From NCBI GenBank assembly GCA_016213365.1, contig JACRAP010000016.1:1-54356 (forward strand): DNA of 54,356 nucleotides. Reading direction: 5' to 3'. The DNA is from Candidatus Berkelbacteria bacterium (GTDB lineage: Bacteria; Patescibacteriota; UBA1384; 2-12-FULL-50-11). A model generated the notes under the pieces. That model was given only the letters and a program-made list of their open reading frames with translations, was not told where the DNA came from and did no database searches. The translations under genes and the position numbers were made by a program. How positions within the stretch are numbered: position 1 is the first letter of the stretch; every line of letters starts with the position of its first letter. Positions 4,059 through 53,385 of this stretch are shown one piece after another.

Positions 4059-4090
4059 CTTCGACTCACTGCGTTCGCTCAGTGTAAACA
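4059..4090 (+). repeat. REP-like element after tRNA-Leu(CAG)
   Basis: CTTCGACTCACTGCGTTCGCTCAGTG; the core ACTCACT(G/A)CGTTCG recurs at 52364. Confidence 0.6.
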
Positions 4091-4419: not shown

Positions 4420-5742
4420 ATGCCTATGGTTATGAAAAAACTCATCCCCAAGCAATTAATATTGTTTTATCATTATTTAACAGCTTTACTTGCCGCATTT
4501 TACTATCGGTTCCCCTCAAAAAAAATGATCGTAATCGGTGTAACCGGCACCAAAGGCAAAACCTCAACCATTAACTTTATCTGGTCGTGCTTAACTAGCG
4601 CTGGCAATAAAGTTGGAATAATCAGCACCGCCAATATCAGAATCGGCCACAAAGAAGTACTGAACAAATACCATATGACGATGCCAGGGCGTTTTACAAT
4701 CCAAAAACTAATGAAGCAAATGCTTAACGAGGGCTGTAAATTTTGTATCGTTGAAACAACATCCGAGGGAATAAAACAATTCCGTCATATCGGTATTTAT
4801 TACGATATCGCTGTATTTACAAATTTAACGCCGGAGCATTTAGATTCGCACGGCGGAAGTTTTGAAAAGTATAAACAAACGAAAGCTAAAATGTTTAGCG
4901 CCCTTTCAAAACACCGAAAAATTATCGATGGAAAATTAGTTGAGAAAGTTATCGTCGCCAACGCCGACGACGAGCACGCAAAATACTATTTAAAATTTTC
5001 TTCCGATAAAAAAATCACTTTTTCCCTTAGCGAATCTACTGCGGATGTTGTTGCTAAAAATATAAACGAAACAAAAGATGAAGTTGCTTTTGAGGTTGGT
5101 GATAGTAAATTCAAAATCAAAATACTCGGTAAATTTAATGTATATAACGCCCTTCCGGCGATTATTATTGCACGATTATTTAACGCAAAGGATAAACAAA
5201 TTGAGAATGGCTTAAAAGAACTTACTAAGATTCCGGGACGAATGGAGTTTATTGATAACGATCGAGATTTTTCGGTAATTGTTGATTACGCGCACGAGAA
5301 AGTAAGTTTAACAAACGTACTTGAAGTTGCAAAAAACTTAAAAAAACCAAATTCAAAAATTATTTTATTACTTGGCGCCGAAGGCGGTGGCAGGGACAAA
5401 AGTAAGCGACCGATTATGGGCGAGATCGCTGCTAAAAACGCGGATGTTGTAATTGTTTCCAACGTCGATCCGTACGACGATAAGGCACAACAAATAATTG
5501 AAGATATCGCAGTTTCAGCAGAAAAATTCGGCAAAGTTAGAGATAAAGACATATTTACGATCGAAGATCGACGTTCTGGTATCAATAAAGCATTAAGTTT
5601 AGCAAAATCAGGCGATATAGTTTTAATTACCGGCAAAGGCGCTGAACAATCACTGGTAATAGGTGGCAAAAAAATCCAGTGGGACGATCGTACGGTAACC
5701 AGAGAAGAGCTTGAAAAACTAAGCAAAGCTCGACATTCTTAA
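4420..5742 (+). CDS. murE: UDP-N-acetylmuramyl-tripeptide synthetase (MurE-type Mur ligase)
   Basis: GVTGTKGKTST P-loop, FTNLTPEHLDSHG, PGRME, VDYAH, GGGRDKSKRPIMG and LITGKG motifs. Confidence 0.92.
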   Translation: MPMVMKKLIPKQLILFYHYLTALLAAFYYRFPSKKMIVIGVTGTKGKTSTINFIWSCLTSAGNKVGIISTANIRIGHKEVLNKYHMTMPGRFTIQKLMKQMLNEGCKFCIVETTSEGIKQFRHIGIYYDIAVFTNLTPEHLDSHGGSFEKYKQTKAKMFSALSKHRKIIDGKLVEKVIVANADDEHAKYYLKFSSDKKITFSLSESTADVVAKNINETKDEVAFEVGDSKFKIKILGKFNVYNALPAIIIARLFNAKDKQIENGLKELTKIPGRMEFIDNDRDFSVIVDYAHEKVSLTNVLEVAKNLKKPNSKIILLLGAEGGGRDKSKRPIMGEIAAKNADVVIVSNVDPYDDKAQQIIEDIAVSAEKFGKVRDKDIFTIEDRRSGINKALSLAKSGDIVLITGKGAEQSLVIGGKKIQWDDRTVTREELEKLSKARHS

Positions 5743-5768
5743 TATTCCTCTGATACACTTCTAATAGG

Positions 5769-6530
5769 ATGAACCGAGGTAAAAGAATAGTAATTTTCAG
5801 TTTGCTTGTCTTGGTAACTATTGGAATTCTGGTTTTTCTTTTAGGACCAGGACTTTTTGCTAGCGTTGCCTATCCCCTGCCAGAGAAATATAAAGGTTCG
5901 ATCGCTAAATGGACCAAAGAATACTGCACCGGAATTAGTGATTCGGCACACTTGTTGTCTGGTTTAATTATGGCCGAGAGCGGTTGGCGCGAGGGCGCTG
6001 CTTCTTACGCTGGGGCAATTGGAATGACGCAATTTATCCCCTCAACTGCTGTTGCCGTAGCCGGTCGGCTTGGTATTTCGCCGTTTACGCCAAGTGATTT
6101 AACTAGAGATTCAGATCTTTCTATTAGATTTGGTGCTTATTATATCTGTACTCGAATTAAAGATTACGGCGGAAACGTTAAGCTGGGCTTAATTGCCTAT
6201 AACGGCGGCGGCGGGGCGGTAAATGCGTACCTAGCTGGCACACCCGTAAGTGGTACTGTTGGCTACGCCGATAAGGTTATGCGTCTACAAAGAGCTTACA
6301 AAAGCATCTACGGCGATTGGTGGCGCGATCCCAAGTACGGCGGCGAGCCGATCAATCCAAACGAGCCGTTCGACGTTTTTCCTAAAACCGAAACTTCAGT
6401 AGTTGGAAGCATTTCGATTATTGACTTTTGGCAGGGGTTATTATCTAATGACGATGCGCCCGAAACGGCCGCAACAGAAGAACCGATTAATATTTTCAAT
6501 TTTTGGAAGATATTTATTCCAGGGCAGTAA
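5769..6530 (+). CDS. membrane-anchored lytic transglycosylase (SLT domain)
   Basis: N-terminal TM; catalytic AES, GAIGMTQFIPST and AYNGG motifs. Confidence 0.9.
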   Translation: MNRGKRIVIFSLLVLVTIGILVFLLGPGLFASVAYPLPEKYKGSIAKWTKEYCTGISDSAHLLSGLIMAESGWREGAASYAGAIGMTQFIPSTAVAVAGRLGISPFTPSDLTRDSDLSIRFGAYYICTRIKDYGGNVKLGLIAYNGGGGAVNAYLAGTPVSGTVGYADKVMRLQRAYKSIYGDWWRDPKYGGEPINPNEPFDVFPKTETSVVGSISIIDFWQGLLSNDDAPETAATEEPINIFNFWKIFIPGQ

Positions 6531-50975: not shown

Positions 50976-51304
50976 TACTGACTCCTACTTTCGGATAATT
51001 CCTTGATTAAGTTCTGGGTAAATTGATTTTTCTCAAGCGAATAGTAAACAGTTTGAGCTTGTTTATTTGAGCTTAAAATATTTACGGCTTTTAATTTTTT
51101 TAACTGTCTTGAGGCGGCAGAAACCGATAATCCAACTAACGAGGCGATCTCACTTACGGACAATTCGGGGTGATTTCTAAAAAGATAGCAAATCTTCATT
51201 GCACTTGGGTCGCCGATGGTGCCGTGTCGCTCGGCGCAAGCACTAACAGCTTCGTTATTAGCCAGTTCTGATCTTATTTTTTGGTAATCTTTATTTGCAC
51301 CCAT
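50975..51304 (-). CDS. ArsR/SmtB-family transcriptional repressor
   Basis: SVSEIA...SAASRQL..L and VYYSL winged HTH; ATG at 51304 preferred because the TTG at 51340 is the -35 box. Confidence 0.88.
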   Translation of the reverse strand: MGANKDYQKIRSELANNEAVSACAERHGTIGDPSAMKICYLFRNHPELSVSEIASLVGLSVSAASRQLKKLKAVNILSSNKQAQTVYYSLEKNQFTQNLIKELSESRSQ

Positions 51305-51340
51305 ATGCAAATAATATACAAATTCGTATTTGCGTGTCAA
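51291..51340 (-). promoter_or_regulatory. copper operon promoter and operator
   Basis: TTGACA-N18-TATTAT-N6-ATG; inverted repeat TTATTTGCA-N6-TGCAAATAA at 51291-51314 and further CAAATA half-sites. Confidence 0.65.
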
Positions 51341-51392
51341 GGAAAATACAAATAATTACAAAAATTAACGAAAAAAAGGGTATAATACAGCC

Positions 51393-52343
51393 ATGGAAAC
51401 AATACTAAAAAATAAATTGATCGCAGTAATTATAGTGCTACTACTAATGACAATGGCTGGGTGCGTAATTTGGTATGGCACTAAAAATGCAAGTAATACC
51501 GATAATCAACAAAACAATAATCAAAAAACAAATAACACTCCAACTCCTACGCCTGACGACCCAACCAAGCCAACAAACAACACCACAACTGTAAAAATTT
51601 ATTTTAGCAAAACCGGCGACACCGATTGCTCTAAAGTTTACGCCATTAACCGCACAATTCCAAAGACTACCATGATCGGAACCGCCGCCCTAAATCAACT
51701 TTTTAAGGGGCCAACTGATACCGAAAAAACTAACGGCTATACTTCTTTATTTAGTTCTAAAACAGCCAATATTTTAAACTCACTTCAAGTTACAAACGGC
51801 GTCGCTTATGTAAATTTGAAAGATATCCGAACCCTTATTCCAAGCGCTTCAAGTAGCTGTGGTAGTGCTCAATTTATCGCCGAAGTTGAAAGTACTTTAG
51901 AGCAATTTAATACCGTTAAAAAGGTGGTAAATGCGATCGATAGCGATGTTGAAAAGTTTTACGAGTGGGTTCAAATTGGTTGCCAGATTAGTAACAATTT
52001 GTGCGAAAATGCACCACTAAAAACCAACTTAGTTAAAGTAACTTCGCCTAGAAGTAGCGCAAAGATTTCAAGCCCTGTTAGTATTACCGGCGAGGCGCGC
52101 GGTAGCTGGTTTTTCGAAGCAAGTTTTCCGATTAAAATAGTTGACGAGCAAGGTAAAGTAATCGGTAGCGGTATTGCAACTGCAACTAGCGACTGGATGA
52201 CATCGAACTTCGTGCCGTTTACTGCTAATATCAGCTTTACAGCTCCAGCTACAACTTATGGCGCGATTATCCTGGAGAGGGATAATCCTTCAGGCCTTGC
52301 GATTAATGACGATAGTGTGAGGGTGTTTGTTAGATTTAAATAA
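51393..52343 (+). CDS. membrane-anchored GerMN plus Gmad2 Ig-like domain protein
   Basis: VKIYF, AL..L.KGPT..E...GY and TL.QF.TV (GerMN); ITGEARG.WFFEASFPI and LERDNPSG (Gmad2). Confidence 0.85.
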   Translation: METILKNKLIAVIIVLLLMTMAGCVIWYGTKNASNTDNQQNNNQKTNNTPTPTPDDPTKPTNNTTTVKIYFSKTGDTDCSKVYAINRTIPKTTMIGTAALNQLFKGPTDTEKTNGYTSLFSSKTANILNSLQVTNGVAYVNLKDIRTLIPSASSSCGSAQFIAEVESTLEQFNTVKKVVNAIDSDVEKFYEWVQIGCQISNNLCENAPLKTNLVKVTSPRSSAKISSPVSITGEARGSWFFEASFPIKIVDEQGKVIGSGIATATSDWMTSNFVPFTANISFTAPATTYGAIILERDNPSGLAINDDSVRVFVRFK

Positions 52344-52344
52344 T

Positions 52345-52537
52345 TTGCGCCCCGGGAGGGAATACTCACTACGTTCGTTTCCCTCCCGGCAATCAAAAAA
52401 CGCACGGACAAGCCGTACGTTTTTCAATTTGCGCCCCGGGAGGGAATAACCTCACCTTGTTCGGTTTTCCCTCCCTCTAGGGCAACAAAAAACGTGTGAT
52501 CAAGTCACACGTTTTCCGTTGCGCCCCGGGAGGGAAT
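52345..52537 (-). repeat. tandem array of tRNA-Arg 3'-end repeats with hairpin spacers
   Basis: TTGCGCCCCGGGAGGGAAT at 52345, 52429 and 52519 (the last is the tRNA itself); periods 84 and 90 nt. Confidence 0.92.
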
Positions 52538-52595
52538 CGAACCCCCGACCTTGACGTTAGAACCGTCTTGCTCTAATCCGCTGAGCTACCGGGGC
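52522..52595 (-). tRNA. tRNA-Arg(TCT)
   Basis: Reverse strand GCCCCGG...CCGGGGC-G; A20 present; anticodon loop GT-TCT-AA. Confidence 0.92.
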
Positions 52596-52750
52596 AATAT
52601 ACAGGGCGTGTTTCTAATAAAGTACGTAGTGCGCTCGGCTCTTATTTGTGCCCTGTTTATTATGGCACAAACAGAGCCTTCCGTTCGGCAGTTGCTGGCC
52701 GTCCACCGGACGCCCAGCTGATGCTGCCTCATGCTGAGCTACCGGGGCAA
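52580..52750 (-). repeat. palindromic cassette flanked by an 18-bp repeat of the tRNA-Arg 5' end
   Basis: GCTGAGCTACCGGGGCAA at 52580 and 52733, with two long imperfect hairpins between. Confidence 0.9.
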
Positions 52751-52779
52751 AATTATTGACGCAACTACCGTATTTTACC

Positions 52780-53385
52780 TTAATTACGCTTAAATTTTAA
52801 TCTTTTTATAAAATAACCGCCTCCCGGGGGGAGGCGGTATCGAAGAGGGGATTGGGACTTAGGCACGTACATCACCACATCTTCCAACATCCACTTACCA
52901 ACTCTTTTCATGTAAATGTACCAGACCAGCTTTGTCGCCCTGATCGGTTCTGGAGCACCTACCTTTAGGTTAGCTTCCGAGTCAGAAGGAAAACTGAAGG
53001 TCCACACCACGATTTCATCTTTAACTCTTTCAAGTGCTCTGATGATTTCCTGGGGTGGCTTGTCGGGTTCATTCCCGAAAGCAGAATACCGATTCATTTT
53101 CTGGTCGATGGATTCAAGCGAGAATTTTTTGTTCCTCGCTCTCTCCTCCATAGTTAGCTGGATCGTTCGAATCGCTTTTGCGAATGTTAAAATTCGCATT
53201 TCTCGTTCAAATTCACCACCCACAATGGGCATGATCTTGGTGAAGAGCCCTTCCTCCCTCACCGTCTCAAACCCACCCTTTCGAGCGGCCTCGACGAAGC
53301 TTTTGGCTGCGTCGAACTTGGTTGGGGGCGTGCTCGTTTGCATCGAGCAAGCCAATAACAACGATAATGTGCATCCGGTGAACAA
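52780..53385 (-). CDS. hypothetical lipoprotein-like orphan
   Basis: AAGGAGGTGA SD before a TTG start; LLLAC lipobox-like motif. Confidence 0.65.
   Translation of the reverse strand: MFTGCTLSLLLACSMQTSTPPTKFDAAKSFVEAARKGGFETVREEGLFTKIMPIVGGEFEREMRILTFAKAIRTIQLTMEERARNKKFSLESIDQKMNRYSAFGNEPDKPPQEIIRALERVKDEIVVWTFSFPSDSEANLKVGAPEPIRATKLVWYIYMKRVGKWMLEDVVMYVPKSQSPLRYRLPPGGGYFIKRLKFKRN

Follow-up and report, generated by a model that had tools for sequence, protein, structure and literature searches.

Three exact copies of a 19-bp sequence follow one another in the genome of a Candidatus Berkelbacteria bacterium, and the locus raises the question of what kind of repeat this is and how it came to stand behind a tRNA gene. 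The stretch of DNA analysed, referred to here as the window, is 54,356 nucleotides long; it belongs to a genome of 560 kb that is 94% complete, and the public sequencing runs containing this DNA are groundwater metagenomes, with no RNA data set listed among them. A preliminary description had proposed a CRISPR-like mini-array whose repeat is the 3′ end of a tRNA-Arg gene. We find that the locus is real, that it is not a CRISPR array, and that it is one more example of the tRNA-linked repeats (TLRs), a kind of repeat that has long been unexplained.

Anatomy of the tRNA-Arg(TCT) locus

The sequence TTGCGCCCCGGGAGGGAAT is present in three exact 19-bp copies, as originally described, starting at positions 52345, 52429 and 52519 with spacings of 84 and 90. 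The whole window holds no further copy even when 3 mismatches are allowed, and the number expected by chance has a mean of 0.01 over 100 shuffles, in which three copies were never reached. The third copy (52519-52537) comprises positions 58-74 of an intact tRNA-Arg(TCT) gene and two trailing bases, so that the proposed identity of the repeat with the tRNA-Arg 3′ end holds. Since this copy is the end of the gene itself, the supposed array of three consists of one gene and two units, exact as the copies are. The two units directly abut the gene, starting at the base after it. The following features are recognised, of which the 5′-side unit upstream of the gene does not appear in the preliminary description:

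52772..52779, minus strand: -10-like motif GGTAAAAT, upstream of the 5′ fragment and not of the intact gene
52596..52748, minus strand: 5′-side unit of 153 bp, of which the first 16 nt match the 5′ end of the tRNA, with the break in the D loop, followed by hairpins including a decayed inverted copy of the 5′ end; fold z -3.8
52521..52595, minus strand: intact tRNA-Arg(TCT) gene, CCA not encoded (ARAGORN; Rfam RF00005, 59.6 bits)
52429..52518, minus strand: unit 1 (proximal, 90 bp), a 71-nt insert and a copy of tRNA positions 58-74
52482..52522, minus strand: terminator-like hairpin of unit 1, 18 pairs (2 G.T), loop 52500-52504; its 5′ arm begins within the last bases of the tRNA
52459..52483, minus strand: decayed inverted copy of the tRNA T arm and acceptor strand in unit 1, in register with an offset of +1/+3
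52451..52463, minus strand: tip of unit 1, with a C-G pair, tandem A.G/G.A, two pairs and an AAG triloop
52429..52447, minus strand: second 19-bp copy (tRNA positions 58-74 plus AA)
52345..52428, minus strand: unit 2 (distal, 84 bp), a 65-nt insert and a copy of tRNA positions 58-74
52391..52429, minus strand: terminator-like hairpin of unit 2, 17 pairs (3 G.T), loop 52408-52412
52373..52389, minus strand: inverted copy of the tRNA T arm and acceptor in unit 2, complementary to 52526-52542 at 16/17 positions
52365..52377, minus strand: tip of unit 2, CGAACGTAGTGAG, with tandem GA and a GTA triloop
52345..52363, minus strand: first (outermost) 19-bp copy, 2 bp from the stop codon of the convergent gene
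51393..52343, plus strand: convergent neighbour, given for context, encoding a 316-aa protein with Germane and Gmad2 domains

Read on the tRNA strand, the order is the tRNA end, a terminator-like hairpin, an inverted T arm, a GA/GA triloop tip and again the tRNA end from A58. The hairpin of each unit has 17-18 pairs and a 5-nt loop, which reads CTTGA or CTTGT on this strand, and the 3′ arm of the hairpin contains a T tract. Because the 5′ arm begins in the last bases of the tRNA, the tRNA end joins with the hairpin and the inverted copy in a single long, imperfect palindrome, and the unit takes the shape of a forward-reverse-forward zig-zag that turns at the terminator loop and the T loop. A consensus terminator scan flagged neither hairpin; both stems continue through the T tract. 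The tandem G.A pairs and triloop of the tip can form on the tRNA strand alone, and DNA mini-hairpins of this type are known for their stability.

The structural elements named in the preliminary description are all present, namely the arm folding back onto the repeat, the tip with CTCAC..GTTCG and the two terminator-like hairpins, and each unit is more stable than 200/200 shuffles. Folding is also better on the tRNA strand, at -50.4 and -43.1 kcal/mol for the two units versus -41.8 and -32.3 kcal/mol on the other strand (z as RNA of -7.5 and -6.2 versus -7.2 and -5.1). The stem covariation that had been reported is real, in that 3/7 pairs of the inner terminator stem differ on both sides between unit 1 and unit 2 and one of the seven becomes G.T, but it is drawn from two sequences. 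Beneath the tip, the stem of unit 1 exceeds that of unit 2 by 2 bp on each side. Each unit is structured and takes part of its sequence from the tRNA end as template, and the earlier view that they are not the outcome of simple slippage stands.

An assembly artefact might be suspected in a metagenome assembly near a conserved tRNA, but this explanation is barely credible here: run X1, which may be the source, has one contig that covers 51300-52566 with zero differences, and run X2, from another study, matches 52280-52430 and 52471-52597 exactly, with 52431-52470 uncovered among the pieces listed. The units moreover differ from each other, and their design recurs in many genomes and in Escherichia coli K-12. 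A CRISPR-like mini-array, with the tRNA end as repeat and the inserts as guides, would account for exact 19-bp repeats at near-regular spacing, but this reading is largely refuted and scarcely deserves any weight. Cas1, the Cas family searched, has 0 matches in the 94%-complete genome, as has the Y1 transposase; the inserts, at 65 and 71 nt, are longer than typical spacers (about 25-45 nt), can be aligned with each other, are complementary to the repeat through the inverted copy of it that they include, and gave no match to phages at E 1; and the repeat differs with each tRNA.

Upstream of the tRNA gene, a 201-aa open reading frame (52780-53385, minus strand) has no Pfam or NCBIfam match. Its true start is probably internal, and a 10-bp hairpin (52816-52838) overlaps its end.

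Likeness to the tRNA-linked repeats of Escherichia coli

TLRs of E. coli (Egan & Landy 1978, Rudd 1999, as summarised in PMC8144298) comprise 1-5 units per locus downstream of tRNA or rRNA genes, the last 18-19 bp of which equal the end of the upstream gene; the summary in PMC8144298 credits them with no known function. According to the same summary they also follow 5S rRNA genes, and the rRNA-linked TLRs are transcribed, processed near the repeat and bound by Hfq and CsrA (PMC8144298). Both units described here lie right behind the tRNA-Arg gene, and their end identity consists of 17 bp of the gene (58-74) and 2 trailing bases, 19 exact positions in all. With these defining features, both units are TLRs built on the E. 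coli plan.

The likeness extends to an internal design, which lies outside the TLR definition as summarised in that source and which the E. coli repeats have in common with our units: the junction, the terminator with inverted T arm, and the tip. From 56 distinct tRNA contexts in E. coli K-12, 13 TLR units were recovered, and the copy starts at 58-59 in 13/13. The lysQ TLR contains a terminator, an inverted T arm and GA-rich tips, like the longer units of the source genome, and the TLR of the valU-cluster tRNA-Lys likewise combines a terminator, an inverted T arm and tips. A tip pattern that had been fixed before the E. coli sequence was read gave a single match in 101 kb, located at the end of an arg TLR directly before the copied tRNA end. 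The tip of unit 2 is one base off the tips of this arg TLR (which is one base longer), of a tRNA-Lys unit in the same genome and of a tRNA-Gly unit in another genome (G005).

In both organisms the units thus stand in tandem behind a tRNA gene, are rich in hairpins, carry an 18-19 bp tail (19 in the tRNA-Arg units) and have their junction at 58-59. In contrast, the E. coli units are 98-178 bp long and contain extra hairpins, whereas the units of the window, at 84-90 bp, lack these. Units at tRNA 5′ ends are present in the source genome but in none of the 56 E. coli contexts, and units that carry a nuclease gene are found in relatives (see below), whereas the three E. coli TLR regions examined are without an annotated nuclease. 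The locus can be regarded as a minimal 84-90 bp version of the TLR in a distant lineage with small genomes, tied to the E. coli TLRs by junction and tip.

A search of the window against Rfam at gathering and E-value thresholds returned tRNA only. The RtT RNA of the tyrT repeats (RF00391, covariance model, 45-bit threshold) had no match in the window or in any of 22 genomes of the order (0/22), and the E. coli control was positive.

Recurrence across the genome and its relatives

The same design was sought at the 36 tRNAs of the source genome with at least 200 nt of flank and at 248 tRNAs of relatives (233 with enough flank), which came from 150 of 925 order-level tRNA matches plus further matches and were not picked for having units. 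A copy of the cognate 3′ end lies within 400 nt of 8/36 tRNAs in the source genome and of 33/233 in the sampled relatives; non-cognate controls had means of 0.0 and 0.6, respectively, and the wrong side gave 0. Copies of the 5′ end accompany 8/36 and 18/233 tRNAs (non-cognate controls 0.16 and 0.46). The break points lie mostly in the loops: 3′ copies begin in the T loop (54-60) in 12/14 units of the source genome and 32/36 of relatives, and 5′ copies terminate at nt 12-23, in the D loop, in 11/11 and 19/22. Before the outer 5′ copy a -10-like motif is present in 8/9 cases in the source genome, versus 1/9 before the intact gene; the pattern is weak in relatives (6/18). One 10-mer match behind tRNA-Thr(CGT) was discarded as likely chance, being lost at 12-mer length. 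There remain 28/36 tRNAs in the source genome without 3′ units.

The third of the units behind tRNA-Lys(CTT) on contig C22 shares this plan and has a near-identical tip, and its arms derive from the Lys end; arms therefore follow the host tRNA and the tip is constant. At the orthologous tRNA-Arg(TCT) site some relatives are empty and others have other units, and no gain or loss was seen at the tRNA-Arg(TCT) site itself. A scan of metagenomes with the last 29 nt of the tRNA yielded 31 loci. Most of these were rich in GC and unrelated, 0/31 had a copy of the 3′ or 5′ end, and no close strain was among them.

The inverted arm is in register with the hairpin centre in 22/27 units that have a leading hairpin. 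The non-cognate control for this register is high (mean 11.7, maximum 17, 200 runs) because T arms resemble each other, and an in-register inverted arm was also scored at 9/37 hairpin-bearing tRNAs without a copy. Specificity for the cognate tRNA is clear over the last 24 nt, where 12/25 arms fall in the top 5%, and weak over the last 12 nt (5/25). Among 25 distinct hairpins, mismatches on the tRNA strand are G.T in 34 cases and A.C in 7 under symmetric scoring, a bias which indicates that it is this strand that maintains the structure, whether in the form of RNA or of single-stranded DNA.

Junctions in the T loop are also known from another source. In attL/attR duplications at tRNA 3′ ends, the 3′ end is duplicated from the T loop, the gene stays intact and a terminator follows, and Williams' work is said to describe how integrative elements at tRNA 3′ ends leave just such a T-loop junction and a terminator behind the restored gene. 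The units could accordingly be scars of a tyrosine integrase, left by tandem integration at the T loop and loss of cargo, with the terminator of the element and the displaced 3′ end remaining; the junction and the terminator behind an intact gene fit this account, yet we consider it improbable. The units have neither integrase nor cargo, they occur at many different tRNAs and also at 5′ ends, and their in-register inverted T arm is left unexplained. The one tyrosine recombinase match (PF00589) is a 338-aa frame on contig C5, more than 12 kb from the tRNAs of that contig.

The tip is found before the junction in a minority of distinct ends (3/12, 3/34 and 3/7). Its strict form is present in 3/162 genomes of the class, and 2 of 3 matches in other genomes are away from tRNA. 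The pattern has at least 121 loci in GTDB, where among the matches listed 2/127 lie within 300 nt of a tRNA, and 14 loci in IMG/VR, of which 0 are with a tRNA. The tip was rejected as a marker of tRNAs; it is a generic hairpin cap, common away from them.

Several other occurrences were observed. Within the source genome, 8/16 tips fall within 400 nt of a tRNA. Tips stand right behind tRNA-Leu(CAG) (window 4060-4090), tRNA-Ala(GGC) (G000 C19 17171-17200) and tRNA-Ile (C7 9964-9995) with no duplication of the end, those behind tRNA-Leu(CAG) and tRNA-Ala(GGC) being inverted. Among the GTDB loci (L036-L156), the GA/GA triloop tip caps long hairpin repeats off tRNAs in Lachnospiraceae, several per genome and some in tandem, and it is also present at a conserved site away from tRNAs in genomes of the Streptococcus mitis group. 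On contig C7 (G000, 5191-5960), two tRNA-Met genes are each followed by two near-identical units (140 and 98 bp), which are recent tandem copies, whereas the tRNA-Arg pair has diverged. Elsewhere on this contig (9690-9890), several tRNA-like 5′ fragments upstream of tRNA-Ile(TAT) suggest intron-split or decayed tRNA genes.

Small GIY-YIG nucleases and a possible origin of the units

A search for PF01541 in 162 genomes of the class gave 755 matches, and 87 short-frame loci were examined. These were the 30 best, another 40 from the top rows, where a few at the ends of contigs were passed over, and 17 drawn from ten of the order's genomes. In 50/87 of these loci the small GIY-YIG gene is no more than 300 nt away from a tRNA or tmRNA; as background, about 5% of the source genome is within 400 nt of a tRNA. 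The RNA genes near the nucleases are on the nuclease's strand in 60/61 cases. For long GIY-YIG frames, taken as control, 4/13 were located by profile and 0/4 are near a tRNA. By script, copies of a tRNA end bracket 13/87 nuclease genes, at the 5′ side in 11 cases and at the 3′ side in 2; a further 3′-bracketed gene (L326) was recognised by eye, and 37 tRNA-adjacent nuclease genes are without a detected bracket. The tRNA-adjacent nucleases are not one clade, with 23 changes on a quick tree of weak support. No small GIY-YIG gene was found in the source genome, 94% complete, whose sole PF01541 match is a 539-aa frame. A search of viral contigs with a three-protein GIY-YIG alignment gave no confirmed relative.

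Two loci illustrate how nuclease and unit are combined. In a genome of the same family (L323, G013), the order after tRNA-Lys is a unit of the terminator type, one copy of the Lys end, a GIY-YIG gene of 78 aa and a second copy of the Lys end; the closest solved relatives of this nuclease are the UPF0213 proteins 1zg2 and 1ywl. At L215 the nuclease gene takes the place of the terminator, ahead of the inverted arm, the tip and the Lys end.

We tentatively favour, with a confidence that stays just short of an even balance, the reading that the units are TLRs produced as non-autonomous offshoots of a small mobile system, in which a GIY-YIG nuclease acts in trans, nicks in the T loop and is followed by fold-back repair. 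A tiny nuclease of this family, in trans or since lost, would nick the single-stranded tRNA gene in its T loop. Repair by strand switching would copy the gene end backwards and then forwards, in a fold-back of the tandem-inversion type, and this copying would rebuild the end of the tRNA gene. The tip may be the recognition hairpin or mark of the nuclease, and each hairpin may later have been tuned as a terminator on the tRNA strand. With the tRNA gene left intact, the units would be carried as near-neutral passengers and would also keep transcription from running on into the convergent gene. A nuclease origin is favoured by the fixed position of the junctions in the loops, by arms that match the cognate tRNA, by the bias towards one strand, by the likeness to TLRs and by the association of nucleases with tRNAs. 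Against it stand the lack of such a nuclease in the genome, the small number of 3′-bracketed genes, the several nuclease lineages and the frequency of the tip off tRNAs, as well as the lack of an annotated nuclease at the E. coli TLR loci examined, the presence of the tip at a minority of junctions and the absence of polymorphism at the site.

Some of these points can be read differently. The TLR design might be made by host replication and repair alone, through template switching at tRNA hairpins, and be kept because the units act as RNA, in the form of additional terminators or processing decoys downstream of a strongly transcribed tRNA, the nucleases being separate tenants; we regard this as a serious possibility, though a doubtful one. 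The excess of G.T over A.C on the transcribed strand, C-to-T changes that lengthen the T tract, a convergent gene end 2 bp away and a source genome in which no small nuclease was found all suit this explanation, as do the transcription, processing and Hfq/CsrA binding reported for rRNA-linked TLRs in the summary of PMC8144298. However, random switching would not be expected to yield a fixed non-tRNA tip common to E. coli and this lineage, junctions fixed in the T and D loops, or nuclease genes bounded by tRNA-end copies, and the 28/36 tRNAs of the source genome without units also argue against it.

A broader form of the nuclease origin is that TLRs, which in E. coli have lacked an explanation since 1978, are the empty offspring of a widespread minimal mobile element without transposase or integrase. 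Such an element would consist of a GIY-YIG nuclease of approximately 80 aa directed at the T or D loop of tRNA genes; it would duplicate the gene end and leave zig-zag units, whose GA/GA triloop tip would be conserved from E. coli to ultra-small bacteria. This we think unlikely, though still worth stating. In relatives, a candidate enzyme is found within an array of this kind, which brings the question of where TLRs come from within reach of a simple assay that needs an 80-aa protein and some oligonucleotides. Of this account, the link to the nuclease is the sole part that could be new: a literature search for TLRs or tRNA-end duplications linked to GIY-YIG nucleases found no paper, most subscription papers, including Rudd 1999, being outside its scope.

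Known systems offer partial parallels. REP/BIME sequences with TnpA-REP (RAYT) are short, strand-specific hairpins whose spread is attributed to a single-strand nuclease acting in trans. Unlike these, our units are bound to the ends of tRNA genes, from which they are in part copied, and PF01797 (TnpA-REP/RAYT) has no match in the source genome. SsnA, a single-domain GIY-YIG nuclease, cuts single-stranded DNA beside its hairpin repeat, and the main text of its description makes no mention of tRNA (PMC11893778, a paper that also discusses REP/BIME sequences). As described there, Ssn nucleases and their NTS/SRM repeats resemble the present case in that single-domain GIY-YIG proteins of about 80-95 aa are encoded beside short hairpin repeats, and the Ssn gene is flanked by repeats, like a minimal mobile element (PMC11893778). 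Nevertheless, the degenerate SRM motif has 0 matches on either strand of 52331-52770, and an 8-member clade that appears SsnA-like by its flanking repeats is near tRNAs in 0/8 cases.

Further arrangements of small GIY-YIG genes were noted among the loci examined. At L207, L213 and L214, on the 5′ side, a 5′ tRNA copy runs through the D arm and a near-constant 14-nt palindrome then replaces the anticodon arm, after which come the nuclease gene and an intact tRNA; the tRNAs are Ala, Asp and one truncated at a contig end, and the proteins cluster with 93% support. In a 100%-supported clade (L193, L195, L200, L208, L221, L359, L366, L374, L381, L386 and L394), the GIY-YIG gene often ends in a stop codon that overlaps the beginning of the tRNA-Ser gene downstream. 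In three members of the family, GIY-YIG genes stand 128-163 nt behind tmRNA (L329, L330 and L343), in a 99%-supported clade with L339, and L217 is also tmRNA-adjacent. Finally, by eye, one small GIY-YIG gene apparently lies within the 5′ part of a 16S rRNA gene (L325, G007:C2 ~366380), and another apparently interrupts an RNase P RNA gene on the opposite strand (L327, G014:C12 ~18578).
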